From NCBI GenBank assembly GCA_963528005.1, contig CAURSM010000023.1, positions 11,211 through 75,210 of the forward strand: 64,000 nucleotides of DNA. Reading direction: 5' to 3'. This document shows positions 585-26,933 of the stretch, in pieces (position 1 is the stretch's first letter; every line of letters begins with the position of its first letter). Source of the DNA: an uncultured Eubacteriales bacterium. Lineage in GTDB: Bacteria > Bacillota > Clostridia > Lachnospirales > Lachnospiraceae. A program made the position numbers and the translations under genes. A model generated the notes under the pieces. That model searched no databases, had not been told where the DNA came from, and saw only the letters and a list, made by a program, of their open reading frames with translations.

Positions 585-597
585 ACTACCCCTCCTT

Positions 598-1563: not shown

Positions 1564-1587
1564 TCTCTTTTTCTCCTTTTTCATGGT

Positions 1588-4862: not shown

Positions 4863-4873
4863 AATCCCCTCCA

Positions 4874-6325
4874 TTATATTTTTTCTTTTATGTATTCCAC
4901 TGCACTGAGGGCTGCAATGCGTCCTGTATTAACCGCATAGCCCATGGAATTACCAGGCAGCAAAAACATGTAGCTGTCATCGTAGATGTTGCAGGAATCT
5001 GCACCTGCACAGTAAAGTCCAGGTACTGGCATATAATCGTTGTCGCAGGCCTCACAGTTTTCGTTGATTCGTATCCCTCCAACAGTTCCATATCCACCGG
5101 GGTGAATTGCTGCCGCATAATAGGGAGCCTTAAACAAAGGTCTTAAGTATTTGGGATCTTTAAAGAATTCAAGGTCTCTGCAATCACAAAAATAGTTATA
5201 ATTGTCTACAGTTTCTTTTAAATTGTCTGCATTAATCCCAGCTAATTGTGCCAGTTCCTCTATGGTATCAGCAATAAAATAATGTTTGCTTCCATTTTTC
5301 TTCAGCATCTGAATGCCTTCATAAAAGTCTGACACATCTGGATTGGGAGTTACCAGACTCGTCACGTCTACGCCATGGCTGATATAATAATTTACAATGG
5401 AACTATCTACGATTGAAAAACAGACCTTACCCCTTTGATGGTTTGCCACATTGGATAGGTAAGTGGTGTTTTGCATATAATCCTCATTCATAACTCTCTT
5501 ACCAAAAGAATTCACCAGCAGATTGGGCTGCTTCATAATATTGGTGACTCCACCTGTGGTGGGCTCCCCCCCTCCCAGATCACTGGCCATTTCAATTCTC
5601 ATCTGGGTCTGGTCCGCTCCTGCCTCCCAAGCCATTCTAAGTCCATCGCCCATTAACCCTGGGATGGCGAAGTTAAAGACATCCTTGCCATGCTCCAGCC
5701 CGGTATGCTCCTTAATCATATCCTTATTGGCTCCTGCTCCTCCGGTACAGATAATTGCAGCATTGCAGTTGACTCTAACCTCCTGCCCGTCAGGAGAAGT
5801 TCCAATCATACCAGTTACTTTTCCATGTTCCTTTATAATCTTTTTTACAGAATGCTCTAACAGGATTGTTACTCCAAGTTCCAGAGCCTTCTCATACATA
5901 GCTCGATTCATAAAAGATGCTGCCCTTGGTCCAATCCCTGTATCTGTCTTTACAATGTGCCAGGTTGCTTCTGACTGGGGGAAGTAGCGGAATGCGCCCT
6001 CAAACTCAACGCCCATATCCTCAAGCCACTGTATGGTTTCTCCAGACTGGGAAAAATACCGCTTTACTAGCCTGGCATCCACATTGTAATGGGTATAATC
6101 CATAAACATGTTAAACGCTTTTTCTACACTGATGTCTATCATCTGTCTTTTCTGATATAAGGTCCCGATTCCCAAAGGACCCATTCCCATATTGGCGGCG
6201 CCCCCAACTGTAGATGCCTTTTCAAGCACCACCACACTTGCCCCCAACTGTGCTGCCTGAACAGCAGCCGCCAGTCCGGAAGGGCCTGCCGCAATGACTC
6301 CGACCTGTGCTTCATACTCTTTCAT
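4874..6325 (-). CDS. FAD-dependent oxidoreductase of the fumarate reductase / urocanate reductase / 3-ketosteroid dehydrogenase flavoprotein family (FAD_binding_2); soluble
   Basis: N-terminal dinucleotide fold VGVIAAGPSGLAAAVQAAQLGASVVVLEK and C-terminal GLYCAGAD motif. No signal peptide or TM segment. It is the first gene of the operon, downstream of a 262-bp AT-rich region. Confidence 0.8.
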   Translation of the reverse strand: MKEYEAQVGVIAAGPSGLAAAVQAAQLGASVVVLEKASTVGGAANMGMGPLGIGTLYQKRQMIDISVEKAFNMFMDYTHYNVDARLVKRYFSQSGETIQWLEDMGVEFEGAFRYFPQSEATWHIVKTDTGIGPRAASFMNRAMYEKALELGVTILLEHSVKKIIKEHGKVTGMIGTSPDGQEVRVNCNAAIICTGGAGANKDMIKEHTGLEHGKDVFNFAIPGLMGDGLRMAWEAGADQTQMRIEMASDLGGGEPTTGGVTNIMKQPNLLVNSFGKRVMNEDYMQNTTYLSNVANHQRGKVCFSIVDSSIVNYYISHGVDVTSLVTPNPDVSDFYEGIQMLKKNGSKHYFIADTIEELAQLAGINADNLKETVDNYNYFCDCRDLEFFKDPKYLRPLFKAPYYAAAIHPGGYGTVGGIRINENCEACDNDYMPVPGLYCAGADSCNIYDDSYMFLLPGNSMGYAVNTGRIAALSAVEYIKEKI

Positions 6326-6535
6326 ATATGTAACTTCCTTTCAGAACAATTTGAATTAACAAGTATAATTATATAATTTATCTCAAATAGTTTCTCGACA
6401 CTTTCACGATTATATCAGCATTTATTCTAGTATTTTTAATCTATTTTCCATTATTAATTAATTTCAATTATTAAATATTAAATATTTCTCATATTCATTA
6501 ATATTATCCGTATGTTTGTACCTTTAAGATAGAAG

Positions 6536-6579
6536 TACCGGAAGAACCAAAGTACTAATTCTCTTTGATTCCTCCGGTA
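6536..6579 (-). terminator. long imperfect hairpin directly after the DgpC-like stop codon; possible operon boundary
   Basis: TACCGGAAGAACCAAAG...CTTTGATTCCTCCGGTA forms a stem of about 17 bp with mismatches. The minus-strand U-tract is weak, so termination efficiency is uncertain. Confidence 0.4.
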
Positions 6580-6587
6580 TTTTAATA

Positions 6588-7640
6588 TTATTCCTCTATG
6601 GCTCTTCTAAGCGCCTCCTGCTGACGCCTTACCTGTTCAATGCTGTCAACCTCCAGAGCATCATTTAGCATCCGGTTTCCTTCGTATTCGGAAGAAAGAT
6701 ATCCGTTATAACCAGCTTTTTTATAAGCTTCCACCACTTCTTTTATCGGGATGGAGGTTTCTTCATAAGCCTCATTCATATGATAAAACTTGGCATGTGT
6801 ATGATAAATATACTGGATATTATCAATAATATCTTTGGGATCGCACCAGGTATAATCAAAAGTGGAACCTGCATAGGCCAGTTCTGCCGGCGTGGCATGA
6901 ATCTTCTCCAATGTCTCCATTAGATTTGGATATCCATTGGCCTTCATATACGCTCCATGAGCCCTTCCCAGATTTAAATCGTATTTAATCTTTGTGAATC
7001 CTTGATTCACACGGTTTAAGAAAGCATCTTCTACGATTTTAATCACTTCTTCCCGGCATCCATTACGAACAGCCTGAGCGGTCAGAATATCCGGGATCTT
7101 GCGGCAGAAGATTCCAAAATCGGGCATAAAACCAAAATGCCTTGTGCCGGTCTTATGTATCATTTCCATATAGCCGTCAGCCCAGCCGGAACTAAGGGAG
7201 AAGGGAGAATGTACCTCTATACAGATTTTAATATCCTTTTCTTCTGCATATGGTATGCTGCCTTCAATCACATCCATAGGAGTAGAAACCAGGGTTCTTA
7301 AGGTCTGAAAGCCTAGCTGACTGGCATTTTCAATATCCCGCTTCATCATGGCAATCTGCTCTCGCAAGGTACAAATCCGGTTGTCATAGATTCGATTTTC
7401 CAGAAAAGCATCGTAGCAGGTTGGCTCTGTCCCATACTTTTTCATCCAGCCAAACCATTTCTCTTTAAACTCCGGTGTAATCACCGGAAAATCATCTACC
7501 ATCTGCTCTGCTAAAAGCTCAATGCCTGTGGCTCCTGTTTTCGCGGTTTCTCGTATACAGCCTTCCAGATCAAGCTTTCCTTCGTAATACTCCTGCTGGT
7601 AGCTGTATAGAGACACACTTATTTTTATTTTGTTATCCAT
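6588..7640 (-). CDS. C-glycoside deglycosidase alpha-subunit-like TIM-barrel protein (DgpC/CarB-like sugar phosphate isomerase/epimerase fold)
   Basis: Xylose-isomerase-like TIM-barrel sequence (GIELLAEQ..., ICIEVHSPF). It follows a ~128-aa partner ORF and a Gfo/Idh/MocA oxidoreductase. The ATG at 7640 has GGAGG 7 nt upstream; the track start at 7661 is a TTG overlapping the upstream stop. Confidence 0.7.
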   Translation of the reverse strand: MDNKIKISVSLYSYQQEYYEGKLDLEGCIRETAKTGATGIELLAEQMVDDFPVITPEFKEKWFGWMKKYGTEPTCYDAFLENRIYDNRICTLREQIAMMKRDIENASQLGFQTLRTLVSTPMDVIEGSIPYAEEKDIKICIEVHSPFSLSSGWADGYMEMIHKTGTRHFGFMPDFGIFCRKIPDILTAQAVRNGCREEVIKIVEDAFLNRVNQGFTKIKYDLNLGRAHGAYMKANGYPNLMETLEKIHATPAELAYAGSTFDYTWCDPKDIIDNIQYIYHTHAKFYHMNEAYEETSIPIKEVVEAYKKAGYNGYLSSEYEGNRMLNDALEVDSIEQVRRQQEALRRAIEE

Positions 7641-7657
7641 CCCATTTCCTCCCTGTC

Positions 7658-8044
7658 TCAAAGTTCAAAATCGTACTCACCTGCATGAACCAGAATATGT
7701 GGCATGTAGGAAGGTGCAATTGTCTGGGTACACTTGATGTGATGGTTACCAGGGGCCAGACCACCCTCTGCAATCACCGTAACCGTTCCATACTGGCCAA
7801 ACAGCCAGCGATTGCTGATTACAGTTTTCATCTCATCCTGTGTAAAGGTTTCCCCATTAACCGTAAACAATATGGATTCCCTGGGATATTCTACTCCATC
7901 TACATTGACTTCAATATTGCGTAAAATCGAAAGGGTGATGCCCCGATAATACTGAATCTTCATTTTAAAACAAAAACCTGTAACTCTGCCTTCTTCCTCT
8001 ATGTTTTGAAAGCCAAGAGGATGATACATCTGTTTTGGAAACAT
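7658..8044 (-). CDS. small C-glycoside deglycosidase beta-subunit-like protein (DgpB/DUF6379-like)
   Basis: 128 aa, positioned between the oxidoreductase and the TIM-barrel gene as in dgpABC-type loci. The YYRGITLSILRNIEVNVDG pattern resembles my recollection of this family. No search was possible. Confidence 0.6.
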   Translation of the reverse strand: MFPKQMYHPLGFQNIEEEGRVTGFCFKMKIQYYRGITLSILRNIEVNVDGVEYPRESILFTVNGETFTQDEMKTVISNRWLFGQYGTVTVIAEGGLAPGNHHIKCTQTIAPSYMPHILVHAGEYDFEL

Positions 8045-8073: not shown

Positions 8074-9177
8074 TTAGAAAAAAACTTCTTTCCCGGTTTC
8101 GGCAGACTGATAGATGCCCTCCAGAATTTGAGTGACTACAAATGCCTGCTCTGGCTTCACAAGAGGATCCTCATTATTTAAGATTGCCAAAAGCCACTGC
8201 TTCTGCTCTCTGACTCCTTCAGCGGAAGCACCACCTTCAAAGAAATCCACCACTCCAGCAGGAGATATGGTTTTCTCCATGAGTGTGTTGTGCTCCACAG
8301 TATTGTAGATTAATTCATCTTTTGGATAACTGCCCCCATGATGAATCTCAGCTCCCGCTTTCGTACCGCAAAGTGTGGTGGATGCCTCCATGGATTTTAA
8401 AACATTCAGGGCCCAGGATGCCTCCAGATAAATGGTCGCTCCATTTTTCATCTTTACAAGCCCAAATGCGGAATCTTCTACCTCAAAGGTTTCTGGGTCC
8501 CATGGACCAAATACATTGCCTTCCGGTCCATCTGCCTGACGCCCCAGCTTATAATATACCTGGCCGGAAACAGATAAAGGCTCATAGTTATTCATCATCC
8601 AAAGTGTAATATCCAGAGCATGGGTTCCAATATCAATCAGGGGGCCTCCCCCCTGGAGTGACTTATCCGGGAATACTCCCCAGGTTGGTACTGCTCTTCT
8701 TCTTAATGCATGGGCCTTAGCAAAATAGATCTCTCCCAATTCATTGGCTGCACAAGAGGCATGTAGGGTCTGAGTATCTTCCCTTAGTCGGTTTTGATAG
8801 CCAACGGTGAACTTTTTCCCCGACTTCTTCCACGCATCCAGCATTTTTATTGCATCTTCCGTGGTATGTGCCATTGGCTTTTCACACATCACATGCTTTC
8901 CGGCTTCAAACGCCGCAACTGTTATGGGACAATGAGCCACATTGGGTGTGCAGACATGAACCACATCCACATCAGGATCATTCACCAGGTCATTATAATT
9001 GGAATACACCTTTGCATCTGTTGAACCGTATTCTCTGGCGGCTTTCACAGCCCTCTCTTCCACAATGTCGCAGAATGCAACAATTTCATTCAATTCTCCA
9101 TTTGCTTTTAATGATGGCATATGCTTCTGATTTGCTATTCCGCCGCAGCCGACGATACCAATTCTTAATTTTTTCAT
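8074..9177 (-). CDS. Gfo/Idh/MocA family NAD-dependent oxidoreductase (DgpA-like glycoside 3-oxidase candidate)
   Basis: N-terminal Rossmann motif MKKLRIGIVGCGGIANQKH, an EKP motif (CEKPMA), and a length typical of the family. Confidence 0.8.
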   Translation of the reverse strand: MKKLRIGIVGCGGIANQKHMPSLKANGELNEIVAFCDIVEERAVKAAREYGSTDAKVYSNYNDLVNDPDVDVVHVCTPNVAHCPITVAAFEAGKHVMCEKPMAHTTEDAIKMLDAWKKSGKKFTVGYQNRLREDTQTLHASCAANELGEIYFAKAHALRRRAVPTWGVFPDKSLQGGGPLIDIGTHALDITLWMMNNYEPLSVSGQVYYKLGRQADGPEGNVFGPWDPETFEVEDSAFGLVKMKNGATIYLEASWALNVLKSMEASTTLCGTKAGAEIHHGGSYPKDELIYNTVEHNTLMEKTISPAGVVDFFEGGASAEGVREQKQWLLAILNNEDPLVKPEQAFVVTQILEGIYQSAETGKEVFF

Positions 9178-9199: not shown

Positions 9200-10567
9200 T
9201 TATTTCATTCGTTCCAAATCTCTTTGTTCATTTCTAATCCGAAGCTTCTCCCTGATTTCAGGCATATCGCTCTCTTTTAACTTGTAGCAAGCAATGGGAA
9301 TAAGGGAAAGTATAAAAATAATTGCAGGCATTACGTTAGTTGCAATGATAATACCTGTTTTCACGTGTTCCGTAATTTCTTGCCCAGCTACATATCCATA
9401 CCAGCCTATAATTGCAATTCCTAGAGCACCTCCAAGAGCCGTACCGATTAAACCACCTAAGCCATTTAAAGAAAATGCGGTACCATCGGTTCTTACTCCT
9501 GTTTTTAAATCTCCATCATCAACTGCATCAACAATCATACAAGATCCGCAGGGCCCAGCAATATATCCAAGACCATATACAATGTGACATAAGAAGAGAT
9601 AAGGGATATTCATATAGGGACCAAATACCATCATTAGCAGACCTAATGCCTGGACGAGACCAGAGAAATAAATGGTTTTCTTCTTCCCAAAGTGTTCCAT
9701 AACCTTAGGAGAAAATGGCATAATGAGCGCGCCTACCAGCATCTGCATCATCATAAAGATAGTGATAAAGGTAAAATTTTTCACTACATATAAATAGAAA
9801 TAAACAGCCACTCCAATACGCCCAAGCATGCCTGCCATATTTAAAATGGTATACAGCACAATCATCATTAAGTTTTTATTCTTAATAATAAGCTTTGCAG
9901 ATTCTTTTAGGGAAACCTGATCTTCTTTATGTACTTGTACCGTCTCTTTGCATCTCCACGCGCACAACCAGAAGATAGGAAGAGCAATCAATGCAAAAAC
10001 ACTGGCTGTTTTTTGATACCCAACTCCCATATCACCACCACCAAAGAGATTTACAAGGGGGAGGGTTACGAGATTTAAAAGAATCATTCCAAATACCATG
10101 CCCATCATCTGAGCCGTATTTAAGCGGTTGATTTTCTTACTGTCTGTTGTCATAACTGCCGGCAAAGCAAGATATGGTACATTGGATATGGTGTAAGACA
10201 TGCCAAGACCAATGTATGTAATATACGCATAAATAAGCTTTCCTTTACTCCCAAACCCAGGTACTGTAAAGGTTAATACGGTAAACAGAACCAGCAGAGG
10301 AGCCCCTATGACAATATAAGGCCGAAATCGTCCGAATCTGGTATGAGTACGTTCCATCAATGCGCCCATTAAAGGATCACTTACCCCACTCCAAATCTTT
10401 GCTATAAGAAAAAGAACCGCAACGGAACCGGCGCTTAATCCAAAAACATCTGTGTAAAATACTGCCAGGTAGGTGGTTACCATTGTCCAGGAAAGCTGAG
10501 AGGCAAAATTCCCCATGCCATAGGTAACGTATTCCATCGGTCCTATCTTACTGCTTTTAGTCCCCAT
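9200..10567 (-). CDS. glycoside-pentoside-hexuronide (GPH):cation symporter family transporter
   Basis: About 12 TM segments with a MelB/GPH-like N-terminus (YGMGNFASQLSWTMVTTYLAVFYTDVFG). The ATG at 10567 follows AGGAGA; the track start is at 10585. Confidence 0.75.
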   Translation of the reverse strand: MGTKSSKIGPMEYVTYGMGNFASQLSWTMVTTYLAVFYTDVFGLSAGSVAVLFLIAKIWSGVSDPLMGALMERTHTRFGRFRPYIVIGAPLLVLFTVLTFTVPGFGSKGKLIYAYITYIGLGMSYTISNVPYLALPAVMTTDSKKINRLNTAQMMGMVFGMILLNLVTLPLVNLFGGGDMGVGYQKTASVFALIALPIFWLCAWRCKETVQVHKEDQVSLKESAKLIIKNKNLMMIVLYTILNMAGMLGRIGVAVYFYLYVVKNFTFITIFMMMQMLVGALIMPFSPKVMEHFGKKKTIYFSGLVQALGLLMMVFGPYMNIPYLFLCHIVYGLGYIAGPCGSCMIVDAVDDGDLKTGVRTDGTAFSLNGLGGLIGTALGGALGIAIIGWYGYVAGQEITEHVKTGIIIATNVMPAIIFILSLIPIACYKLKESDMPEIREKLRIRNEQRDLERMK

Positions 10568-10820
10568 TTTTATTCTCCTATTCATTTTTTTGTGTCATGC
10601 GCGCATTTGAAATCCAGCTGTACCCTTATGATTTCTTGCTCTAATTATAGCAAAATGGACCATTCCTCACGTTTCTATATTCAGCTTTATTCTCTTTATT
10701 TCCGGCTTTATTTAACCTTTTATCTTTTCACTCCAACAAATAAATATATTAAAATTAAAGATTATCGAAATTAGTTAATATATATGATACAATGAAAAAA
10801 ATGGAATCTATGGAGGGGTC

Positions 10821-13265
10821 ATGAATCCAATATTTGAAATTCAATCATTTGTTCAATCAGCCAATCTTTATCTCCTAAGCAAAACAGAAGCACTTCCGGT
10901 GCCTGGACTGGATCTTATTACCATCCTTCGGGGTACTATGACAATCAAAGAGCCTCCAATCTGCTGCAGCCCAAAAGACTGCTTGATTCTTGGGCCTGGC
11001 AATGTAATCAGCGTCACATCTGACGACGAATGCCTGTTTCTTAAGGTCTCTCTCCGCCCAGAATGTATATTGGATACATTGTTTCAGGAATCCATTCTAG
11101 CAAGTCCTACAAGGCGTTTGTCCAGCTCTGAACAAATGCATTCGGTTCTTCTGGATTATGCAAAAGTATATTTAAGCGGGCAGACCTTGAATCAATACCG
11201 GTTATCAGCCCTGACCTTGCAGCTTCTTGATCTTCTCAACAAAGACTCCTCTTTGCTAGCCGGCTTACCTCACGGCTCCACAGAACAGGAATACTCGAAA
11301 CAGGAACTCTTAGTGCAACGGGTTACTGCTTATTTAGAGGAAAACTACAAGGAGAATCCTGGCCTGTCCAAAACAGCAGCCTTTTTTACTATTACACCTC
11401 AATATCTGTCCAGCCTTTTTCAGAAATATTTTAATCAGACCTTTCAAAATCATTTAAAAGGAGTGCAGTGCAGACAGGGAGCGCTCTACTATAGATATAC
11501 GGATCTGGAGTTACATGAGATATGCGAAAGAGTGGGACTGACAAGCCCGGACACTCTCAAAGACTATATTAATCTGGAAGGCATAAAAAAGCCTGTTATC
11601 TCCGGGCTGCCTTCCTCTTCTTTTATGAACCCCCTTTCCCCTGAAAGCAGTCTCCTATCGTTCAGACAGATAAAGAGCGGACAGACTCCTCCAACAGAAA
11701 AGCCGGTCCGTGTTTATGAGATTATAGAGACAACAGTCTTAAAAAGCAGGGAAATGCCAGGCTTTTGGAACCGACTCATTAATTTGGGCTATGCACAGGA
11801 TTTTTCCAATGTTAAAATATTTCACCAGTTAACATATACACAAAGGGAAATAGGATTTTCATATGGAAGAATCTGTAGACTTTTTGATCTTGTCTCCCAA
11901 TATTCCATTGGCGGAAAATCCATTTATGATTACAATCAGATTTTTCAGATTTTAGACATTATGGTAGAAAACCGGATGCTCCCCTTTCTTGAGCTCAGCA
12001 ATAAGCTCTTTCGCATCCATCTTTCTGCCAAAGAAAATATTGCAAAAAACTTAGTCGGCAGCACAGTTTCTTATTTTGATCAGCTTCTGGAGATTCTTCC
12101 CCACTTTTTGCGAGCCTGTATTAACCGCTATGGACAGGAGTCTGTCAATTCCTGGCGCTTTGAAATCAGTTATACCATTTATGACTTTATCGAGCTGTCC
12201 GAAATTTTTCCTTTGTCAAAATATATCCGGTATTTCAAACGCCTAAAAGAATTAATTAAGACATATGCCCCAGAATGCCAGGTAGGAGGCCCAGGCTTTA
12301 ATCAATGGAACAATCCGCAGCTTCTCACAAAAATATATGAGATGATGCAAGCGGCACAAGCTACACCCGATTTTTTAACAGCTTACATCTATCCCCTAAC
12401 CAGTGATGGTGCGGATGCCTCCATTTCCTCCGATGAGGATCTTGCTATTAAAAGAATCAAAGAAATCAGTGAAATAACAAAGAGCTTAAATCCAAAACAT
12501 GATCTTTGGATTACTGAATTTAACTCCAATATCTCTTCCCGCAACCTGCTCAATGATTCCAGCTTTCAATCGGAATTTCTTGCAAAGAACTTATCCCAGT
12601 CATGCGGACTTGATATTGAAGCTTTGGGTTATTACATGCTCTTTGATGTCCCTCTTCGCCATTCTGATTCCATGGACATGCTGTTTGGAGGATGGGGACT
12701 CTTTACAGACAGTGGTATCCCAAAGCCCTCTTACCACGCTTATCACATGTTTTCCATGCTAGGGAAGCATTTGTTATATGCCCATAAGAATTTTTTAATT
12801 ACGGCAGACTCCAGTTCCAGCTTCCGCTTTTTATTTTTTCATTACGAACATATTAATCCTGCCTTTACTGGCAGAAATATTCAGATTGAAGACTTTGAGA
12901 CTGATGGAGCTTTTTTTATATCAACAAGCCCGGATTACTGGGAAATCAGAGTTAATGATACCGCCGAGGGTACCTATTTGGTCAAAGAATATGTAATATC
13001 TGACAGTCGCAGTAATCTTTTATTTCTCTGGAAGCAAATGAATTTAATAACAGTTTCGCGTCCGGAAAATATATCCGTCTTAAAGCAGAATTCCTCCATG
13101 CTGCCTAAGTTAACGACTTTGGAGGTTGACCACAGTGGACAAATGAACTATCAGATCAGTCTCAGACGCCGGGAAGTCAAACTTGTCACCATTGACCTTC
13201 ACACCGCACCTGCATCCATTCGAAGGAGGCCAGCAAATGAATTGGTACCAAAATCTCCCTACTAA
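10821..13265 (+). CDS. AraC-type regulator fused to a GH39-like (clan GH-A) domain lacking the acid/base motif; the HTH region looks divergent
   Basis: The N-terminal cupin-like region is followed by an AraC-like segment (TPQYLSSLFQKYFNQTF). The C-terminal ~500 aa resemble GH39: WRFEISYTI replaces W-FE-WNEP, and the nucleophile-type ITEFN is retained. Confidence 0.6.
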   Translation: MNPIFEIQSFVQSANLYLLSKTEALPVPGLDLITILRGTMTIKEPPICCSPKDCLILGPGNVISVTSDDECLFLKVSLRPECILDTLFQESILASPTRRLSSSEQMHSVLLDYAKVYLSGQTLNQYRLSALTLQLLDLLNKDSSLLAGLPHGSTEQEYSKQELLVQRVTAYLEENYKENPGLSKTAAFFTITPQYLSSLFQKYFNQTFQNHLKGVQCRQGALYYRYTDLELHEICERVGLTSPDTLKDYINLEGIKKPVISGLPSSSFMNPLSPESSLLSFRQIKSGQTPPTEKPVRVYEIIETTVLKSREMPGFWNRLINLGYAQDFSNVKIFHQLTYTQREIGFSYGRICRLFDLVSQYSIGGKSIYDYNQIFQILDIMVENRMLPFLELSNKLFRIHLSAKENIAKNLVGSTVSYFDQLLEILPHFLRACINRYGQESVNSWRFEISYTIYDFIELSEIFPLSKYIRYFKRLKELIKTYAPECQVGGPGFNQWNNPQLLTKIYEMMQAAQATPDFLTAYIYPLTSDGADASISSDEDLAIKRIKEISEITKSLNPKHDLWITEFNSNISSRNLLNDSSFQSEFLAKNLSQSCGLDIEALGYYMLFDVPLRHSDSMDMLFGGWGLFTDSGIPKPSYHAYHMFSMLGKHLLYAHKNFLITADSSSSFRFLFFHYEHINPAFTGRNIQIEDFETDGAFFISTSPDYWEIRVNDTAEGTYLVKEYVISDSRSNLLFLWKQMNLITVSRPENISVLKQNSSMLPKLTTLEVDHSGQMNYQISLRRREVKLVTIDLHTAPASIRRRPANELVPKSPY

Positions 13266-15615
13266 TCTTCCAATTATGTTCTTTCGAAGTATGGAAATAA
13301 AAGAACCATTAACCTTTCAGCATGAATCTTATGATTTCATCTATGTGGTATCCGGTAAGCTTACAATTGGCTACCAGGAACAAGAAGCTCCGTATTTTAT
13401 CAGTGATATCTGTCTGGTCAATCCTATGAATAAGGGCACACTGACACCCAAGGAAAACTGTAGCATCTTCCACCTGGGAATTCACCCATACTTTATAGAA
13501 CAATGCCTTGGGAATTACGGAACACTGATCTGCGACTCTGTGTTGGAGCCAGGCAATAATTATACTGCATTGAAAGAGATTTTAATCAATATTGGAACAA
13601 GATATCTGGAGGGACCATCCGAGAATCATTTAAGCATCTTAAGTCTCTTGTTTGAGCTTATGGATCATTTAAAGAAAGAGAATTATTTTAAACCCGTTCT
13701 TTATGAAAGCATTACAGAAAAGCATGGGGTACGTATCAGCAAGATCATTGATTATATTGACCACCATTATAACGAGCCCTTAACTCTTACCGCACTCTCA
13801 GAGGCCCTTTATTTAACGCCTCAGTATTTGTCGAAATTCTTTCACAAGTACTTGCATCAGAACTTTAAATCTTATCTGATGGAGAAACGGTTGTTTCATG
13901 CATACCGGGATGTTTCTTATACAGATGACCCAATTACAGAAATTGCGATTCGCAACGGCTTTTCCGATGTAACATCATTTGGCAAGGCATTTCGGGCAAG
14001 CTTTCAAATGACTCCCAGCCAATTTCGGAAAAATAAAAACGTCCATATGATTGCAGAGGAATACAAGCAACTGGATCAATACAGCAACGCCATCCTGGTC
14101 TCTGAAAACAGCTACCTTTACAGCAATCAGGTGGATGTAAACATCAATGAAACCGAAGGTTTAAGGAGCAATTACTCCACGCTCCTTAATGTCAGCTCAG
14201 CCAAAAACCTGCTATCTGAAAATTACAGAAGGCTTTTATTAGAGTCAAGAAAATCCCTTGGCTTTAGTTACCTTCGAATTCAGGGAATCTTAAGCTCCTC
14301 CTTTATTCCAAGGGTATTACCAGATTATAATTACTATTTCCTTGATCTTGATGACATCATGCATTTTATGCAGGACCACAACCTGATTCCTTTCATCGAC
14401 CTTACACGGCTGAGCCATGCTTTTTATGAACCAGGGGGAACCTTTCAGGATTCCTTATCTTCCTTGAAAAACAACCGTTTCTTTGAATTACTCCAGGCTT
14501 TTTTAGTCTTTAGTTCTCAAAGTTATCCAAAGGAATGGACCTCACAGTGGACGTTTGAATTATGGAAATTACCAAGGGAGTCACCAAGCCAATATGCCAA
14601 TGATTTTAAGCTGATTCAGGAGTCGATCCAGGCGTATCTTCCTGGTGCCTCCCTTGGTGGGCCTGGCTTTGATTCCAGGGAAAGTTTAAAGGATCTTGAT
14701 GAGATCCTGAAACTGCTATTTCAAGCAGACAGGAAACCCGCCTTTATTTCTACTCATCTTTCCCTCATGAAGCAGCCAGAGTCTTCAAAGGCAATTGTCA
14801 GCATGGATCAGAATCTTCCACTGAATTTGGCACAAAAAATCAAAAAATTGATTCACAAATATGATAAGCAAATGCCTTTTTACATTACGGAATGGAATTC
14901 TATTTCACTAACCGAACTGCCGATACAGTATTCCTGTTATCAGTCGGCCTATATATGCAAGACATGTCTGGATCTAAATTCCGTTAGTGATTTAATGGGT
15001 TATTGGCTGTTTAGCGATACATCAACCCAAACAAGTCCGATAAAACAAAAAGCCTTTTATTTTTGGGGCTCCGGGCTTATTAACAAAGATAACATAGCTA
15101 TGCCTGCCTTTTATGCGTTTCAAATGCTGGAACGCCTTGGCACTGTAATTATTAAACGAGGAGAAAACTTCTGCGTCACCCGAAAAGGTCCAGACCATTA
15201 TCAGATTATGTGCTTTAATTACGCTCACCCCCGATCTTCCTGCCTCTATGAAAACGGGAAATATTCCTCATTCTCCAATGTTTATAAGCTATTCGAGGAG
15301 GTTCCTGCCGTTAATTTCCGTTTTCTTCTACACGGAATCACCCCAGGCAAGTACCGTATTTCAAGGTTTCTTTTAGATCGGTCCCATGGCAGCATTCTGG
15401 ATATCTGGATCGGTGGTTTTGTCAGAAGCAACATAAGCGAAACAGAATATCTTATGGATATTAAACTTCCCTCAGCCTCCCAGTTAAATTATCTTCTAAA
15501 AGCCTGCATTCCGGAAGAACGAAATATTTACTCTTATGCAGAGGATTATTTGGAGGTGGAAACCTCCATTCTTGCCCACAATGTTTGCGTGTGGGATATT
15601 ATAAGACAGGTCTAA
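13237..15615 (+). CDS. AraC family transcriptional regulator fused to a GH39-like pseudo-glycosidase sensor domain (paralog of 10821..13265)
   Basis: Canonical AraC HTH (LTPQYLSKFFHKYL...IAIRNGFSDVTSFGKAFRASFQMTPSQFRK). The GH39-like domain has WTFELWKLP in place of WNEP and retains ITEWN. The ATG at 13237 follows GGAGG and overlaps the upstream gene end; the track start is at 13183. Confidence 0.7.
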   Translation: MNWYQNLPTNLPIMFFRSMEIKEPLTFQHESYDFIYVVSGKLTIGYQEQEAPYFISDICLVNPMNKGTLTPKENCSIFHLGIHPYFIEQCLGNYGTLICDSVLEPGNNYTALKEILINIGTRYLEGPSENHLSILSLLFELMDHLKKENYFKPVLYESITEKHGVRISKIIDYIDHHYNEPLTLTALSEALYLTPQYLSKFFHKYLHQNFKSYLMEKRLFHAYRDVSYTDDPITEIAIRNGFSDVTSFGKAFRASFQMTPSQFRKNKNVHMIAEEYKQLDQYSNAILVSENSYLYSNQVDVNINETEGLRSNYSTLLNVSSAKNLLSENYRRLLLESRKSLGFSYLRIQGILSSSFIPRVLPDYNYYFLDLDDIMHFMQDHNLIPFIDLTRLSHAFYEPGGTFQDSLSSLKNNRFFELLQAFLVFSSQSYPKEWTSQWTFELWKLPRESPSQYANDFKLIQESIQAYLPGASLGGPGFDSRESLKDLDEILKLLFQADRKPAFISTHLSLMKQPESSKAIVSMDQNLPLNLAQKIKKLIHKYDKQMPFYITEWNSISLTELPIQYSCYQSAYICKTCLDLNSVSDLMGYWLFSDTSTQTSPIKQKAFYFWGSGLINKDNIAMPAFYAFQMLERLGTVIIKRGENFCVTRKGPDHYQIMCFNYAHPRSSCLYENGKYSSFSNVYKLFEEVPAVNFRFLLHGITPGKYRISRFLLDRSHGSILDIWIGGFVRSNISETEYLMDIKLPSASQLNYLLKACIPEERNIYSYAEDYLEVETSILAHNVCVWDIIRQV

Positions 15616-16826: not shown

Positions 16827-16867
16827 TTTTTCAACCTTCCTTTATAAATTTCTAGTGATGATCTGCC

Positions 16868-17725
16868 TCATGTTTTCCTGTTCCAAAATTCTTTTATCAG
16901 TTTCACCTGATTGCAATATTCTGTCATACAGTGAATCATCATTAGTTTCATCTCTCTCATAGTTTTATCCCGGTCTGGCTCCGGCTTATAAATAAGCGTT
17001 CCATCTTTCTGAAAGGTCAGGCCATTCCAGTAATGAACTTTTAATTCCCGGCCTGTATCAGTTTCTCTTGTATGCTGGACCATGCACATAACTCTTTCTC
17101 TTGTTTGGATTTCATTTATCTCCTCTGCTTTCCCACCAAGTCCCATGAGAAAAATACATTGAGGATCACGCTTAGAGATATCTTCCTTATGGATTCCCAA
17201 ATGTTCAAAACAAAAGTTGTTCCAATTCATCTCCATCCGCATCATTCCCCAGCCAAAGTCCTCAATCGCACCGTCTTCAAAATGAATGAGATGGGCCCCT
17301 GGATACCACGTTTTATAAAACAGGTTACAGTTTTCGTCATTAGCAAAACCTTCCTGGTAGTTTTTAATCATCTCATCCGTAATTCCGTCCTGCACGATTT
17401 TAATTGCAGCAAAGCCGATTCCATTAGACAACACTCCATAGCCATTTTCCGGATACGTATTACTCCCATCAAGAAGTATGCTTCCGGCAAGCTCTGGCAT
17501 ATAACATTCCTCTGGTTTAAGCGGTCCATGTTCCACTGCCCTTACATGCTCCGGCTGAAGCTCTGCCAGCGGTTCATAATAATATTTTGCAAAAGCAGAT
17601 TCACTCTCTTTCTTCGTTAACCCTATTGTCATATTTCTTAAATCTTCTAAGGAAACCTCATTCATCATTCTCCCGCAGGTACGAGGTGATACCATTATTT
17701 TTCCCTTACTAAATACACAAGCCAT
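16868..17725 (-). CDS. phloretin hydrolase / 2,4-diacetylphloroglucinol hydrolase (PhlG) family protein, putative
   Basis: 285 aa, the size of Phy/PhlG. It has a C-terminal H-x3-E pair (IHCMTEY) like the second His/Glu zinc ligands reported for PhlG, plus upstream WYPGAHLIHFED. It is next to TetR/MFS genes and near a chalcone isomerase homolog. GGAGG lies 7 nt before the ATG. Confidence 0.55.
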   Translation of the reverse strand: MACVFSKGKIMVSPRTCGRMMNEVSLEDLRNMTIGLTKKESESAFAKYYYEPLAELQPEHVRAVEHGPLKPEECYMPELAGSILLDGSNTYPENGYGVLSNGIGFAAIKIVQDGITDEMIKNYQEGFANDENCNLFYKTWYPGAHLIHFEDGAIEDFGWGMMRMEMNWNNFCFEHLGIHKEDISKRDPQCIFLMGLGGKAEEINEIQTRERVMCMVQHTRETDTGRELKVHYWNGLTFQKDGTLIYKPEPDRDKTMREMKLMMIHCMTEYCNQVKLIKEFWNRKT

Positions 17726-17912
17726 GTTCTTTCCTCCGTTTCTTCCCTTTCATTCAGTTGAATAATCCTAAGATATCAGGTATAATTTTCTTTAACTATT
17801 ATCATTGATTCATCATACCGAAATAGATGCGCAAAAAGAAGAACACATTTTAGAAATATGTTCAGTTTGCTCTACGCATTTCATAGTCTATGACTAGAAA
17901 GAAAGGGGAATC

Positions 17913-18545
17913 ATGGAGGCAAAAAGTGATAAAAAGCCAGGGAAGGGGCTACTGACAAAGAAAACCATAGCTGATTCCTATCTTGCTATGATTCCTTTTA
18001 AAAAGTGGGATAAAATTACGGTTAAGGAAATTTGTGCTGAGGCAGATATTACAAGGGGTACCTTTTATCTATATTACAATGATATTTATGACTTGATGGA
18101 ACAGATAGAAGCATCACTTCTTTCAGAACTGACAAAGAGATATTCAACACTTACAGATGACGATTCCTCTGCCTCATTTTCGAGAGATCTCCTATCCTTT
18201 GATGTGACCCCTCCTGCTATGTTTTTGACCTGGTTTGATTTTTGTAAAGATTATAAACGGGAAATGATTGCTTTATTGGACCGAAAGAATGGGGATATGT
18301 ATTTTATAAGTAAATTAAAGCATTTCTTATTAATCCATATCAATAACATCATGGATCGGGACGGATTACCTAAGGATGGACTCCGAACTCATTTTTCAAA
18401 GATATTTTTGGAGCTTCATTTAATGGCAGCTCAGACCTGGTTAGAGCAGGGAGACGACCAGTTTTTATCAACAGATGAAATCGTAAATCTTTTAAATACC
18501 ATGCGGGTTGGAGCCAGATATTTGTCCTACCGTAAACTTGTCTAG
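17913..18545 (+). CDS. TetR/AcrR family transcriptional regulator
   Basis: N-terminal HTH (ITVKEICAEADITRGTFYLYYNDIYDL). It is divergent from the hydrolase gene. Confidence 0.8.
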   Translation: MEAKSDKKPGKGLLTKKTIADSYLAMIPFKKWDKITVKEICAEADITRGTFYLYYNDIYDLMEQIEASLLSELTKRYSTLTDDDSSASFSRDLLSFDVTPPAMFLTWFDFCKDYKREMIALLDRKNGDMYFISKLKHFLLIHINNIMDRDGLPKDGLRTHFSKIFLELHLMAAQTWLEQGDDQFLSTDEIVNLLNTMRVGARYLSYRKLV

Positions 18546-18655: not shown

Positions 18656-19870
18656 TTATGGATTTTTAATAAGCGCTGCAATGATAATTCCCACAACGAT
18701 AGCGCCCAGTAAGAAAAATAACGTACTAAAATAAGAACCACTAGAATCGTAGAGATAACCAGCAATGGTACTTCCAAAGGAAGCAAAAAATAAATTCATA
18801 TTTAGCACTGAAAAATTAATACTATAATTTTTTCTGCCATAAAAGGAACCTACAAAAGCTGAATTAGTCGTAGGTACGCCACCGTAGGCAAGCCCTGTTA
18901 ATATAAATCCCATAATCAGGATATAAAAGCTTCCGGTGCTTAATGATAAGATCAGAGATATAATGGCACTGCAAAACAAAACTTCATTGATGATCATTGT
19001 TTTTACACGGCCAAACCGATCAAACATTCCACCAAATATGACGCGTCCTATTCCATTAAAGATGGAGATCAATCCTACAACCGTGGCTATGGTCCCTGCA
19101 GAAGCCTCCGGCTTCACGGAAATAGCGATTGCTCCAGCCTGTGATATAACCGCAAGACCAGCAGCGCACAAAAGAATTGCCCATATGAAATAAAGCCAGA
19201 AGGAACTTCTTTTAATCATTTGTCTAAAATTCATTTCCTCAACGTTTACAATTTCACTATTATTAATTTCTTTCGTCATTCTTTCTGTTAAAGCCGCTGT
19301 CTCTTCGGCATTTGGCTTTCTAATAAACAACGCACTCAATAGCATAACGATAAAAAGAATAATTCCAAACAGTAATAAAGACCTTCGAAAGCTTTCTCCA
19401 GTTCCTGTAAAAGCCTGATATACCTTACCAATCAAGAAACTACCAAATCCAAATCCCATAAGAAGAATTCCTGAAATCAGACCCGGTTTATCCGGGAAAA
19501 ACTTTGTAACAGCGCCCATAATGGAATTATAGGCAATTCCAGATGCGGTTCCAGAAAGCACACCGTATCCAATGTAAAGGCCTATCAGTGAATTTGTTTT
19601 TGATGCGATAACAAATCCTCCTAAAAACAAAAACGCAGAAACAACCATATTTATTTTAACATTTACTTTTCCTGATAAAAGACCAGCAAAAAAACCTCCA
19701 AGACAAAAAAACATCATACAGATGGTAAAGGTCATGGAAAGCTGCGCACTGCTCCAATCAGTGAAGTATGCAGAAACCGGCCTGGAAATAACACTCCAGG
19801 CATAAATAAGTCCTGCAAATAATAACACCAGTACTCCCATTGCGGCATAAAGCCATCGCTTGTATTTCAT
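18656..19870 (-). CDS. MFS transporter (oxalate/formate antiporter-like subfamily)
   Basis: 404 aa, 12 TM segments, 15 nt downstream of the CHI homolog. Confidence 0.75.
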   Translation of the reverse strand: MKYKRWLYAAMGVLVLLFAGLIYAWSVISRPVSAYFTDWSSAQLSMTFTICMMFFCLGGFFAGLLSGKVNVKINMVVSAFLFLGGFVIASKTNSLIGLYIGYGVLSGTASGIAYNSIMGAVTKFFPDKPGLISGILLMGFGFGSFLIGKVYQAFTGTGESFRRSLLLFGIILFIVMLLSALFIRKPNAEETAALTERMTKEINNSEIVNVEEMNFRQMIKRSSFWLYFIWAILLCAAGLAVISQAGAIAISVKPEASAGTIATVVGLISIFNGIGRVIFGGMFDRFGRVKTMIINEVLFCSAIISLILSLSTGSFYILIMGFILTGLAYGGVPTTNSAFVGSFYGRKNYSINFSVLNMNLFFASFGSTIAGYLYDSSGSYFSTLFFLLGAIVVGIIIAALIKNP

Positions 19871-19885
19871 TGCTTCATTTCTCCT

Positions 19886-20722
19886 CTATCTTCTGGGCAT
19901 ATATCCACGGTACTGGCTATAAGCATCACAGGTCGGAACATCCTTGATGAAAATGCCTCTAATTTCAAATCCTGGTTTTAAATACGGAAATACATCACCT
20001 TCAGCTGCCCAGAAAGGTGCTTTAATTTTATCAGAAGTTTCTATGGCGATACGATGCCACGCCGTCGGACCTGTAAACCACATTTCAACAACTCGTCCCA
20101 TAGGGCAATTATTAATTGTTTGGTCTACTTTACTGGTAAGAATTCTTGTACAGCAGGAATTCTCAATAAAGAATGGAAATACCTCTTCAAACAACCACTT
20201 ATCACCATCTTCCTGGGATACTCCATCCGGATAGGATAAAGCAAAGTTCCAACAGTAATTAGGCCCATCTTCTAACATACGGCCAACTCCCTTAATATCT
20301 TCTTCCCACCACATAGGGCAAAATGCAAAGACAAATGGCGGGCAGCCATTGTTACCACCTGAACTGCGCCCTGCATCTCCAGTCAGCATTACTTCGCTTA
20401 CAGTCTGAGGAACAGTACCTTGCCACTTTAAGACTTCAATGGGGGTATATTCCTGAAAGGCTTTTACCTTCAAAGCTGCATCCATAATATCGACGTTCCA
20501 ATGGTGTTCGGTCAACTGCATACGCACCGTTCCAAATCGTTCTCCACCTGGAGGCACTGGAAGAGCATCAAAAAAAGCATATTTACCACAATAAGGCTCA
20601 AACTGAGCAATACTTTCTGGAATATGATGATAATACAACCAATGATGCAGTCTATGCCTATATTCTTCATCAATTACATCTACATATATAAAACTTCTCA
20701 TAGGATTGAATTCGATTGCCAT
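19886..20722 (-). CDS. chi: bacterial chalcone isomerase (Eubacterium ramulus CHI family) homolog
   Basis: It shares blocks that I recall from E. ramulus CHI: FNPMRSFIYVD, HIPES (the position of the catalytic His), QFEPYCGKYAF, RMQLTEHHW, FVFAFCPMWWEED, KWLFEE, FPYLKP and C-terminal YRGY. The length of 278 aa is similar to that enzyme. Confidence 0.8.
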   Translation of the reverse strand: MAIEFNPMRSFIYVDVIDEEYRHRLHHWLYYHHIPESIAQFEPYCGKYAFFDALPVPPGGERFGTVRMQLTEHHWNVDIMDAALKVKAFQEYTPIEVLKWQGTVPQTVSEVMLTGDAGRSSGGNNGCPPFVFAFCPMWWEEDIKGVGRMLEDGPNYCWNFALSYPDGVSQEDGDKWLFEEVFPFFIENSCCTRILTSKVDQTINNCPMGRVVEMWFTGPTAWHRIAIETSDKIKAPFWAAEGDVFPYLKPGFEIRGIFIKDVPTCDAYSQYRGYMPRR

Positions 20723-20723
20723 G

Positions 20724-21236
20724 TTAATTTCCCCTTTTTAACTTTCTCCGTAATAATATTTTTGTAAAATAATCCACCCCACACCCCACGTACCATACTC
20801 CTACAGCCATGGCGATTCCAATTTGAATCGGCAAGGTTTTTTCCGCCTGTATGTCTTTGAAAGACATCAGACTTAAACCGATGGCCCATCCGCATAACCA
20901 GGAAGGTAGAAATACAAAGTGTTCAAATATAGAAGCGATAACAACTGCCAACGCACCTAAAACTGCTAATGTAACAAACAACTCCAACGTTTCATTCCAA
21001 TTCACTACTTCCATGATTATTAAAGAAAGGACCGCCCATAAATTGCCAAGCCAAAAGCCTGCGGTAATCTTTACGCCATCCTCAATCCGGTTGCCATTTG
21101 TTGAGTACAGCCCCGCACAAATCAATGCCACGGCTCCTGTTTTAATTCCCAGGTGTGGAGCAGATACCGCCCATAAGGGCGGTAAAAGTCCAATAGCAAG
21201 AGCCAAAACTAATTGTTCTTTCTTTTTTTCATCCAT
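20724..21236 (-). CDS. small polytopic membrane protein (possibly DUF1097-like)
   Basis: 170 aa with 4-5 hydrophobic helices. It lies 1 nt upstream of chi and 6 nt downstream of the FMN reductase paralog. Confidence 0.5.
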   Translation of the reverse strand: MDEKKKEQLVLALAIGLLPPLWAVSAPHLGIKTGAVALICAGLYSTNGNRIEDGVKITAGFWLGNLWAVLSLIIMEVVNWNETLELFVTLAVLGALAVVIASIFEHFVFLPSWLCGWAIGLSLMSFKDIQAEKTLPIQIGIAMAVGVWYVGCGVDYFTKILLRRKLKRGN

Positions 21237-21242
21237 TTTTTA

Positions 21243-22187
21243 TTACACACGCTCACATAAAAAAGAAGAGGCAATGGAATCCATATAGCGTTTTTTACGA
21301 AGTTTAAATTCTTCTGTCTGGCGTACTTTTGCAAATGCACCTTCCATACGCTGAATATCATCTCCATGAATAAACTTTCCTGGGATTGTGTCATGAGCGT
21401 GTTCTAATTGTTCTACTGGGAAAACAAATTTTGTCTTTCCATCTTCAATCACAACATCTCCCACCATTCCGCATAAGCCACAGATAGCATTTGTAGATTC
21501 GTTATCCAGATAAAAGAGCTTATTATGACAATGAGGACATAATCCTTCTTCTCCCTGATAAGCAGCATTCTCTACATCTTTTGCGGCATTTGCTAATTTC
21601 ACACCAATTTTATGTACTTCAGCCAAACGTACGTCATCCATAATGAGCTCTTTCGCCCATGGATACCAGGTATTATCAATAATCTTCCACATTGGGGTGA
21701 GAGCCTGCATCGCATGTTCGCATTGAACTCTGGTTCCCCAGTCAGAACCTCCTACTCCCATGTAAGAAATCACTTTATCCTTTAGAATCCTTGGATCGAT
21801 TGCCTTTCCACCATTCTCCTCTGCTATCTTGGAACCAATGATGTTGTTTCCACGATCCATTCTAGGTCCGAAACGATCCATAATAGTATGGAATAGGCCA
21901 GAAGCCCCTTCCTCAAAGATAGGATCAGATATAATAATTCCATCTGCATCAAGCATTTTGTCTAAAAGCCAGTCAAAGTCATCCTTTATGACACACATAT
22001 TTCCTTTTCCACCTAATAGTGTCTTTACACAAGCACAACAACCGGTGCAATGCTTGATATCCAGTGATGACATTCTAATAAACTCTACCTCAGCACCTGT
22101 TTCCTTCGCTCCCATTAACGCTTCCATACAGATAGAATCATTTGTTCCGTTCTTTGTTCCAAAAGAAATACCTAAAACCTTCATCAT
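21243..22187 (-). CDS. iron-sulfur flavoprotein-like / NADPH-dependent FMN reductase family protein with C-terminal Cys4 extension (paralog 2; candidate flavone-reductase-type ene-reductase)
   Basis: MMKVLGISFG flavodoxin-like start, CTGCCAC...C cluster and CPHCH...CGLCG. It is colinear with 598..1563 over its full length. Confidence 0.7.
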   Translation of the reverse strand: MMKVLGISFGTKNGTNDSICMEALMGAKETGAEVEFIRMSSLDIKHCTGCCACVKTLLGGKGNMCVIKDDFDWLLDKMLDADGIIISDPIFEEGASGLFHTIMDRFGPRMDRGNNIIGSKIAEENGGKAIDPRILKDKVISYMGVGGSDWGTRVQCEHAMQALTPMWKIIDNTWYPWAKELIMDDVRLAEVHKIGVKLANAAKDVENAAYQGEEGLCPHCHNKLFYLDNESTNAICGLCGMVGDVVIEDGKTKFVFPVEQLEHAHDTIPGKFIHGDDIQRMEGAFAKVRQTEEFKLRKKRYMDSIASSFLCERV

Positions 22188-22209
22188 AATCTCCTTTTTC
22201 GTGTAAATA

Positions 22210-23598: not shown

Positions 23599-23610
23599 AT
23601 TATTACCTCT

Positions 23611-24693: not shown

Positions 24694-24708
24694 TGTACTT
24701 CTCCTTCT

Positions 24709-25614: not shown

Positions 25615-25626
25615 CTGGCTCTCTCC

Positions 25627-26172: not shown

Positions 26173-26185
26173 TCAATTTTCCTCC

Positions 26186-26923: not shown

Positions 26924-26933
26924 CTTTTCCCTC

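Follow-up and report, generated by a model that had tools for sequence, protein, structure and literature searches.

We report that two adjacent genes in a 64,000-nucleotide (nt) stretch of DNA from an uncultured Eubacteriales bacterium of the Lachnospiraceae (GCA_963528005.1, contig CAURSM010000023.1, positions 11,211 to 75,210 of the forward strand) encode a co-diverging pair of regulators, each of which joins an AraC-type DNA-binding module to a domain related to glycoside hydrolase family 39 (GH39) that lacks the canonical catalytic acid/base residue. The whole stretch is referred to as the window, and coordinates count from its first nucleotide. The pair, comprising open reading frames ORF1 and ORF2, lies beside homologues of the C-glycoside deglycosylation genes dgpABC. 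In our judgement the two proteins probably constitute a glycoside-sensing activator of the divergently transcribed transporter-dgpABC operon, a proposal for which we infer the ligand, the heteromer, the DNA targets and the direction of regulation. Gut and plant-associated Clostridia convert dietary flavonoid C-glycosides to bioactive aglycones, and the locus provides a concrete candidate for a sensor in this process.

A tandem pair inherited jointly across Clostridia

ORF1 (10821..13265, + strand) encodes 814 amino acids (aa) and ORF2 (13237..15615, + strand) encodes 792 aa. Each product consists of a beta-rich N-terminus, an AraC-type domain and a GH39-like domain, with an eroded second helix-turn-helix (HTH) in ORF1 and a canonical AraC double HTH in ORF2. 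The reading frame of ORF2 was listed from a TTG at 13183. Because the ATG at 13237, which lies inside the end of ORF1, has the sequence GGAGG 8 nt before it, we assigned the start of ORF2 to this codon, which yields the 792-aa product and an overlap of 29 nt with ORF1. GGAGG also precedes the ATG of ORF1. The two proteins share 22% identity over their full length (BLASTP, E 9e-43), which bears out the proposal of the initial annotation, made from the sequence alone, that they are overlapping paralogues of about 800 aa.

Using a search of genome contigs and the alignment of closer homologues, we collected 30 related loci from other Clostridia. In 27 of the 30 loci, two genes that encode proteins of about 800 aa with this architecture lie in tandem on one strand, and their spacing ranges from overlapping to no more than about 100 nt apart, mostly less than 30 nt. 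The nearest loci are those of a Lacrimispora metagenome-assembled genome (95% identity for ORF2) and of [Clostridium] aerotolerans DSM 5434 (88% for ORF2); the latter, as Lacrimispora aerotolerans DSM 5434, is a culturable type strain with an orthologous locus at 82-88% protein identity. By these matches, the DNA of the window belongs to a species of Lacrimispora, a plant-associated one. When the 27 upstream and 27 downstream partners were placed in one tree, they fell on the two sides of a single branch with a support of 100, with ORF1 in the upstream clade and ORF2 in the downstream clade, and the two subtrees repeated the same sub-groupings. These mirrored subtrees indicate one old duplication, followed by joint inheritance and divergence.

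The two partners differ in how far they have changed. Both HTH Pfam matches are present in all 27 downstream partners; among the 27 upstream partners, HTH_18 is found in 25 and HTH_AraC in 15, and the upstream partner is the more diverged one in 313 of 351 comparisons. Within the clade of ORF1, which comprises the window and loci L002-L005 and L011, the upstream partners have lost the second HTH motif and kept the first (TPQYLS). Across the 27 loci the upstream partner is conserved as an intact frame, down to approximately 22% identity. Using the Lacrimispora orthologues in L002 and L003, we calculated ratios of nonsynonymous to synonymous substitution rates (dN/dS) of 0.10-0.11 for ORF1 and 0.06-0.07 for ORF2 overall, and every domain of either protein remained below 0.25. 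The eroded HTH region of ORF1 showed a ratio of 0.08-0.11 and its GH39-like domain, with 0.07-0.08, the lowest ratio of its domains; the GH39-like domains of both proteins lie within 0.06-0.08. Both genes are functional and under purifying selection, and the selection on the GH39-like domains fits a retained non-catalytic role.

An intact double HTH in ORF2 and an eroded one in ORF1

In ORF2, the AraC DNA-binding domain (aa 156-268; 13702..14040, + strand) contains two canonical HTH motifs and exceeds the Pfam cut-offs for both HTH_18 (69.1 bits, E 4e-19, cut-off 33.6) and HTH_AraC (30.0 bits, E 6e-7, cut-off 26.6). A phmmer comparison with solved chains also matched ORF2 to SoxS, RamA, MarA and Rob. 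The corresponding region of ORF1 (aa 159-262; 11295..11606, + strand) reaches only 21.1 bits against the same HTH_18 cut-off, and its alignment with 26 upstream partners indicates that the first HTH (TPQYLSSLF) is retained and that the second motif (IA..GF....F...F....P..YR) is gone. The asymmetry between a canonical and an eroded AraC HTH that had been noted from the letters therefore holds in the profile scores. In the AlphaFold2 model of ORF1, helices are still predicted for this region with a predicted local distance difference test (pLDDT) of approximately 86-90, a fold that may be carried by the alignment.

Both models place an eight-strand N-terminal beta domain with helices first, a helical AraC domain next and a barrel last. 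The beta domain agrees in part with the cupin-like N-terminus described in the initial annotation; AraC_binding or Cupin_2 matches were obtained for a few homologues and for neither ORF1 nor ORF2.

GH39-like domains that lack the canonical acid/base residue and keep the nucleophile

The C-terminal region of approximately 500 aa matches Glyco_hydro_39 (PF01229) above the Pfam cut-off of 26 bits in both proteins, with 114 bits (E 9e-33) for ORF1 and 91 bits (E 1e-25) for ORF2. The AlphaFold2 models, which were built on family alignments, have a mean pLDDT of 83.8 for ORF1 and 83.1 for ORF2, and the best matches of both in the PDB are GH39 beta-xylosidases (Foldseek target-normalised template-modelling scores of 0.80-0.83, E 1e-30 to 1e-35). 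Both proteins thus retain the entire GH39 fold, a (beta/alpha)8 barrel with a beta-sandwich. In GH39, which belongs to the retaining glycosidases of clan GH-A, the acid/base Glu lies in N-E-P where strand 4 ends and the nucleophile Glu in T-E where strand 7 ends. Sequence matches to solved GH39 beta-xylosidases are likewise significant, with E down to 3e-25.

In the phmmer alignment of ORF2 with XynB of T. saccharolyticum (1px8), along whose printed form the residue numbers were counted, W443-K444-L445-P446 (14563..14574, + strand) falls on W158-N159-E160-P161, and both this alignment and the family alignments place a leucine at the acid/base position. T551-E552 falls on T276-E277, which puts Glu552, within Y-I-T-E-W-N (14881..14898, + strand), at the position of the nucleophile Glu277; the family alignments agree. 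For ORF1, phmmer aligned WRFEISYTI opposite WYFEVWNEP of 8i0j, and neither the position of the Glu nor the positions next to it hold an acidic residue; S450-Y451-T452-I453 (12168..12179, + strand) thus stands in place of W-N-E-P, as it does in the family alignments. The nucleophile motif of 8i0j is matched by W-I-T-E-F-N (12507..12524, + strand), which keeps Glu566, again in accordance with the family alignments. The initial annotation had described a GH39-like domain of this size without the acid/base residue and with a nucleophile-type I-T-E-(F/W)-N in both proteins. Each of these features is recovered here, in that neither Glu nor Asp occupies the acid/base column in either protein, and Glu552 and Glu566 align with Glu277 of 1px8 or its equivalents.

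Other positions of the pocket have changed as well. In 1px8 numbering, ORF2 carries H54Q, N159K, E160L and Y230S and retains H228 and W315; we take H54, N159 and Y230 of XynB to be sugar-contacting positions. Three positions past the lost Glu, there is a conserved acidic residue (E448 in ORF2, consensus P-x-E-S). Invariant in the 27 downstream partners are R347, W438, F440, E441 and T551 (ORF2 numbering), together with the Glu at the nucleophile position. The genome has three GH39 matches in total, namely ORF1, ORF2 and one canonical enzyme of 503 aa (L001:562-2073) with WNEP and ITEFN.

Loss of the acid/base residue is a family trait

We searched ORF2 against 1.84 billion cluster representatives (50% identity), which returned 781 clusters at E <= 1e-30, and the best 150 of these are almost all of approximately 800 aa. 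Inspection of the catalytic columns in 140 full-length representatives revealed W-N-E-P in 2, Glu without the Asn in 13, Asp in 24 and neither acidic residue in 101 at the acid/base column, and a retained nucleophile Glu in 120 (86%). These counts indicate that a lost acid/base residue and a preserved nucleophile characterise the family and are not a peculiarity of this locus. The stricter statement that every family member is without a carboxylate at the acid/base column was rejected, as 13 of the 140 have Glu and 24 have Asp. Across hundreds of lineages, an enzyme fold has thus been recruited as a regulatory domain with one catalytic residue lost and the other kept, and one sub-lineage of these AraC-GH39 proteins has turned into a co-evolving two-gene unit.

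In a tree rooted on the genome's own GH39 enzyme (FastTree, local support only), the two members that keep N-E-P branch first. These proteins, P0175 and P0209, are AraC-fused, contain both W-N-E-P and the nucleophile motif, and branch beside the true enzyme. They could be fusions of a regulator with a glycosidase that is still active, and represent the ancestral state of the family.

The architecture had been described in the initial annotation as uncharacterised. A study of AraC-GH39 regulators was not found in the literature searched, which left most subscription journals uncovered, and to that extent the description stands. The architecture is neither rare nor unrecorded, however: besides the 781 clusters, a JGI label on an ORF1 orthologue reads 'beta-xylosidase/AraC-like DNA-binding protein', and an AraC-like N-terminal domain has been noted on some GH39 sequences (PMC8543862). 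What is new is the co-diverging pair with one eroding partner; the architecture itself is already in databases.

Catenibacillus scindens DSM 106146 illustrates what this architecture means for genome surveys. Its genome has 24 Pfam GH39 matches, and 23 of them lie in open frames that also contain an HTH_18 match just upstream, which indicates that nearly all of its 'GH39 enzymes' are AraC fusions; these frames span roughly 500-980 aa, with most at about 800. An unusually high GH39 count and missing xylosidase activity have been reported for this species (PMC11170127), and AraC fusions would explain both. Surveys of carbohydrate-active enzymes that count AraC-GH39 regulators as GH39 enzymes therefore arrive at inflated GH39 counts.

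The pair adjoins genes for C-glycoside and flavonoid metabolism

Divergent from ORF1 is an operon on the minus strand that begins with a transporter of the glycoside-pentoside-hexuronide type (9200..10585; Pfam MFS_2, E 4e-88). It continues with a DgpA-like Gfo/Idh/MocA oxidoreductase (8074..9177; Pfam), a DgpB-like C-glycoside deglycosidase beta subunit (7658..8044; Pfam CGDB PF19906, E 9e-40) and a DgpC-like subunit with a xylose-isomerase-type TIM barrel (6588..7661; Pfam AP_endonuc_2), which adjoins the DgpB-like gene as it does in other loci. A DgpA-type enzyme carries out the 3''-oxidation step of C-deglycosylation (bioRxiv 10.1101/816074). Dorea sp. MRG-IFC3 shows Dgp-type activity only once it has been grown with puerarin (PMC11239406), and no regulator is named in that report or in the dgp-operon preprint (10.1101/816074).

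The association extends beyond the window. An MFS_2 homologue adjoins the pair in L002, L003, L005, L011 and L015, and tblastn with window proteins placed DgpB/C-like genes no more than 10 kb from the pair in about 15 of the 27 loci. In most of the remaining loci, the genes found within this distance were DgpA-like or of the FMN_red or FAD_binding_2 type. The earlier suggestion that the regulators sit next to glycoside genes is thereby extended to C-glycoside genes beside the pair across the 27 loci. Because the two genes are inherited together and are usually found beside C-glycoside deglycosylation genes, they are the best candidates for the switch of the flavonoid C-glycoside pathway. Locus L005 has the same divergent transporter-dgpABC layout, with regulators that are 36-38% identical to those of the window and a DgpA that is 82% identical, which indicates that the regulators diverge much faster than the adjoining enzymes.

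Beyond the DgpC-like gene lie FAD_binding_2, Fe-S and FMN_red oxidoreductases. The genes at 598-6325 and 21243-22187, both on the minus strand, encode FAD_binding_2, Fe-S/NADH-type and two FMN_red-type oxidoreductases, homologues of which occur beside the pair in many loci; they are candidate flavonoid or ene reductases. At the window start, a truncated gene (3-608, minus strand) specifies a second xylose-isomerase-like TIM barrel (AP_endonuc_2, E 8e-21), which may be another subunit of the DgpC type or a sugar-isomerase subunit.

On the 3' side of ORF2 are an MFS transporter, a phloretin-hydrolase-like DAPG hydrolase (16868-17725), a weak TetR-like gene and a chalcone isomerase. The TetR-like gene (17913-18545, + strand) is divergent from the hydrolase gene and encodes 210 aa with a TetR_N score of 23.5 bits, just under the cut-off of 24. 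Homologues of its product at 55-57% identity are found near DgpB/C-like genes in L017, L021 and L022, and the flavonoid island may have in it a second regulator. A gene run on the minus strand (18656-28019) contains the chalcone isomerase (19886-20722), DUF1097, FMN_red and LVIVD-repeat proteins, as well as acetate/butyrate-kinase-like, phosphotransacylase-like and 2-oxoacid:ferredoxin oxidoreductase genes, a composition that suggests a route that starts with cleavage of the flavonoid ring and ends in acyl-CoA and ATP.

Candidate control elements between the divergent operons

The 235-bp intergenic region between the transporter-dgpABC operon and ORF1 (10586..10820) is the candidate control region; aligned with its orthologues in L002 and L003, it shows 91% column identity. 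On the plus strand, a promoter-like site for ORF1 (10765-10793) reads TCGAAA-17-TACAAT, preceded by TG, and was identified as a consensus match only. For the transporter-dgpABC operon, we read from the sequence a candidate extended -10 box, TGCTATAAT (10644..10652, minus strand), which lies inside a short palindrome. The box is invariant in L002 and L003, and L005 has TGCTATGAT at the equivalent place. No good -35 hexamer was found upstream of the TGCTATAAT box on the minus strand, and a poor -35 is expected of an activator-dependent promoter.

Upstream of this candidate promoter, the direct repeat GCTTTATT-N13-GCTTTATT (10684..10712, + strand) has a 21-bp register and is a tentative AraC-type operator. 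It is the sole exact match to GCTTTWTT-N13-GCTTTWTT in the window, and with up to 2 mismatches the window contains 5 matches, compared with 0.64 expected by chance. The repeat is loosely kept in L003, where GCTTTTTT is repeated at 22 bp, and in L005. It is T-rich and missing from the other island promoters, and we treat its reading as an operator as a weak prediction.

Just 3' of the candidate minus-strand -10 box, positions 10596-10640 contain the GC palindrome CATGCGCGCATT together with an inverted repeat, GATTTC...GAAATC. The inverted repeat is also present, differently spaced, in the orthologous region of the distant locus L005. These repeats could form a hairpin in the 5' untranslated region or serve as a second operator.

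A proposed two-protein activator and its alternatives

We also examined a predicted contact between the N-terminal domains of ORF1 and ORF2. Complex prediction gave a score of 0.51, compared with 0.00 for the best control; the runs agreed in at least 59% of contacts, and the partners had a pLDDT of at least 75. Of 80 solved complexes, 58 passed the mark used for this prediction, compared with 2 of 110 mismatched pairs; only 7 of the 80 passed at a score of 0.60 or under, as did both of the mismatches that passed. Dimers of AraC N-terminal domains have been solved, and for this reason the pass may reflect likeness to known dimers. The prediction lends weak support to an ORF1-ORF2 heteromer and comes from a method that cannot separate hetero- from homodimers.

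In the activator that we propose, ORF1 and ORF2 would be co-transcribed and translationally coupled one-component regulators, in each of which an AraC module is fused to a GH39-derived pseudo-glycosidase domain. ORF2, with its intact double HTH, would be the DNA-binding activator, and ORF1 would work through ORF2, most likely as a heteromer partner joined at least via the AraC-like N-terminal domains; in a looser form of the proposal, it would act either with ORF2 or upstream of it. The inducer would be an imported plant glycoside, for which a flavonoid C-glycoside or the 3-oxo intermediate made from it is the most plausible choice, held without hydrolysis in the remodelled pocket of the GH39-like domain, in the N-terminal beta domain, or in both. 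The ligand-bound pair would then switch on the MFS_2 and DgpA/B/C operon (9200-10585 and onward, minus strand) and probably its own promoter too. We advance more tentatively, as an idea that is doubtful at present, a narrower form in which the heteromer is obligate and combines an ORF2-type DNA binder with an ORF1-type partner that is losing DNA contact, such that two pseudo-glycosidase pockets jointly recognise one particular flavonoid C-glycoside or the 3-oxo intermediate derived from it. If this form is true, the obligate heteromer would be the specificity switch of substrate-induced C-deglycosylation in Lachnospiraceae, and diversification of the family, as seen in the 23 copies of Catenibacillus scindens, would be how these bacteria tell plant glycosides apart.

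Several observations weigh against a glycoside-sensing pair. ORF2 has lost several of the presumed sugar-contact positions (H54Q, N159K and Y230S). The ligand could be something other than a sugar, and the GH39-like domain might bind nothing at all. The conserved E448 of ORF2 may be a relocated acid/base residue. In the AraC family, effectors are usually bound by the N-terminal beta domain, which could be the sole sensor here. Most family members in Catenibacillus scindens are single genes, which indicates that pairing is not needed for the function of the family. The same island also contains other regulators, namely the TetR-like gene at 17913-18545 and a LysR gene at 29222-30118. Finally, a search for an operator motif shared by the regions 10586-10820, 6326-6587, 16827-16867, 17726-17912, 28020-28253 and 28962-29221 returned only AT-rich matches at chance level.

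Two alternatives would account for the pair with a different division of labour. In Escherichia coli, RhaR and RhaS are tandem AraC paralogues encoded in one operon, each of which is homodimeric, and ORF1 and ORF2 could likewise be independent regulators or a cascade, in which one protein activates the operon of the regulators and the other activates the genes for catabolism and transport, perhaps each with its own glycoside as the signal. We consider this arrangement a serious possibility that is nevertheless unlikely. The tandem co-transcribed layout and the old duplication fit it as well as they fit a heteromer, the double HTH remains recognisable in the upstream partner of most clades (HTH_18 in 25 of 27), several candidate target operons surround the pair, and the complex score of 0.51 is weak and blind to the difference between hetero- and homodimers. 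However, the upstream partner in the clade of ORF1 has no second HTH motif and yet is under purifying selection, which is hard to reconcile with autonomous DNA binding, and the strict mirror phylogeny together with the 29-nt overlap and its internal ribosome-binding site amounts to tight coupling that suggests a need for matched protein amounts. It is also conceivable, but doubtful, that the GH39-like domains are oligomerisation or scaffold modules and that the N-terminal beta domain binds the effector as in classical AraC. Both models contain an AraC-like N-terminal beta domain with helices, some homologues have AraC_binding or Cupin_2 matches, the presumed sugar-contact positions of XynB are replaced in ORF2, and GH39 beta-xylosidases are themselves oligomers, all of which are consistent with a scaffold. 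A scaffold has more difficulty with the nucleophile Glu and the five neighbouring barrel residues (R347, W438, F440, E441 and T551) that do not vary in the 27 downstream partners, and with the GH39-like domain having the lowest dN/dS in ORF1 (0.07-0.08). Furthermore, despite the lost acid/base residue, 120 of the 140 family members have kept the nucleophile Glu, which argues for selection on the pocket itself.

The retained nucleophile, present in both proteins and 86% of the family, could alternatively point to unusual chemistry: a single reaction with aryl glycosides that have good leaving groups would leave a long-lived glycosyl-enzyme as the signal, or turnover would proceed slowly with an outside base, as in myrosinase. 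The structure of an acid/base mutant of XynB1 (2bfg) has, according to its PDB title, covalently bound xylose, and flavonoid aglycones are by general chemistry phenolic leaving groups. Against this stand the consistent neighbours of the pair, which act on C-glycosides and thus on compounds that offer no leaving group for such a reaction, and the replacement of Asn159 and other residues that we take to position the substrate; we regard such chemistry as improbable. Even less credible, to the point of being very nearly dismissed, is the view of ORF1 as a copy of ORF2 that is decaying and has no separate function. Its HTH_18 score below threshold, its eroded second HTH and its faster evolution than that of ORF2 would be expected of decay, whereas the upstream partner is an intact frame in 27 loci and the ORF1 model has a mean pLDDT of 83.8. 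That ORF1 is a pseudogene was rejected on its dN/dS of 0.10-0.11, with 0.08-0.11 even in the eroded HTH, and on its conservation.

Comparison with known systems

The GH39 beta-xylosidases XynB (1px8/1uhv), G. stearothermophilus XynB1 (1w91/2bs9/2bfg) and JB13GH39P28 (8i0j) have in common with ORF1 and ORF2 a fold of approximately 500 residues, the W-x-F-E motif of strand 4 and the I-T-E nucleophile motif. They differ in that N-E-P is replaced by K-L-P in ORF2 and by Y-T-I in ORF1, that H54, N159 and Y230 are replaced in ORF2, and that the barrel of ORF1 and ORF2 sits behind an AraC regulator module of approximately 290 residues.

Tandem AraC paralogues that are encoded side by side and serve one regulon are known from other bacteria, and in this respect they resemble ORF1 and ORF2. 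RhaS and RhaR of E. coli form a cascade, and GadX/GadW and the Salmonella proteins HilD/HilC/RtsA form heterodimers; all are proteins of approximately 250-310 aa without an enzyme-derived domain. In contrast, each partner of the pair described here has an additional pseudo-glycosidase of approximately 500 aa. The eroded second HTH in the clade of ORF1 and the strict co-divergence over 27 loci further set the pair apart from pairs of the RhaS/RhaR type.

Among the staphylococcal regulators, the model of S. aureus AryK (NCBIfam NF047455) matches ORF2 with E 7e-53 (best stretch 29-383) and ORF1 with E 1e-25 (best stretch 543-790), in two stretches each, and AryK has the same order of an HTH followed by a long C-terminal region. 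ORF2 scores 180 bits and ORF1 90 bits, compared with a cut-off of 850 bits, which indicates distant relatives, alike over their full length, and not orthologues. Rsp matched over the HTH only, and Rsp and Rbf are looser likenesses. AryK, which has been studied genetically, is encoded by one gene and modulates toxins as well as central metabolism (PMC3922988), with no pair beside glycoside genes. Signal recognition and multimerisation have been assigned to the 'divergent C-terminal region' of Rsp (PMC7241556), and the papers on AryK and Rsp treat the long C-terminal region as undefined and do not call it GH39-like (PMC3922988, PMC7241556).

The genes divergent from the pair compare with the DgpABC operon of strain PUE and Dorea sp. 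MRG-IFC3, as they match DgpA (Gfo/Idh/MocA), DgpB (PF19906) and DgpC (xylose-isomerase-like barrel). The papers on those two strains name no regulator for dgp genes, and the locus of ORF1 and ORF2 supplies a candidate.

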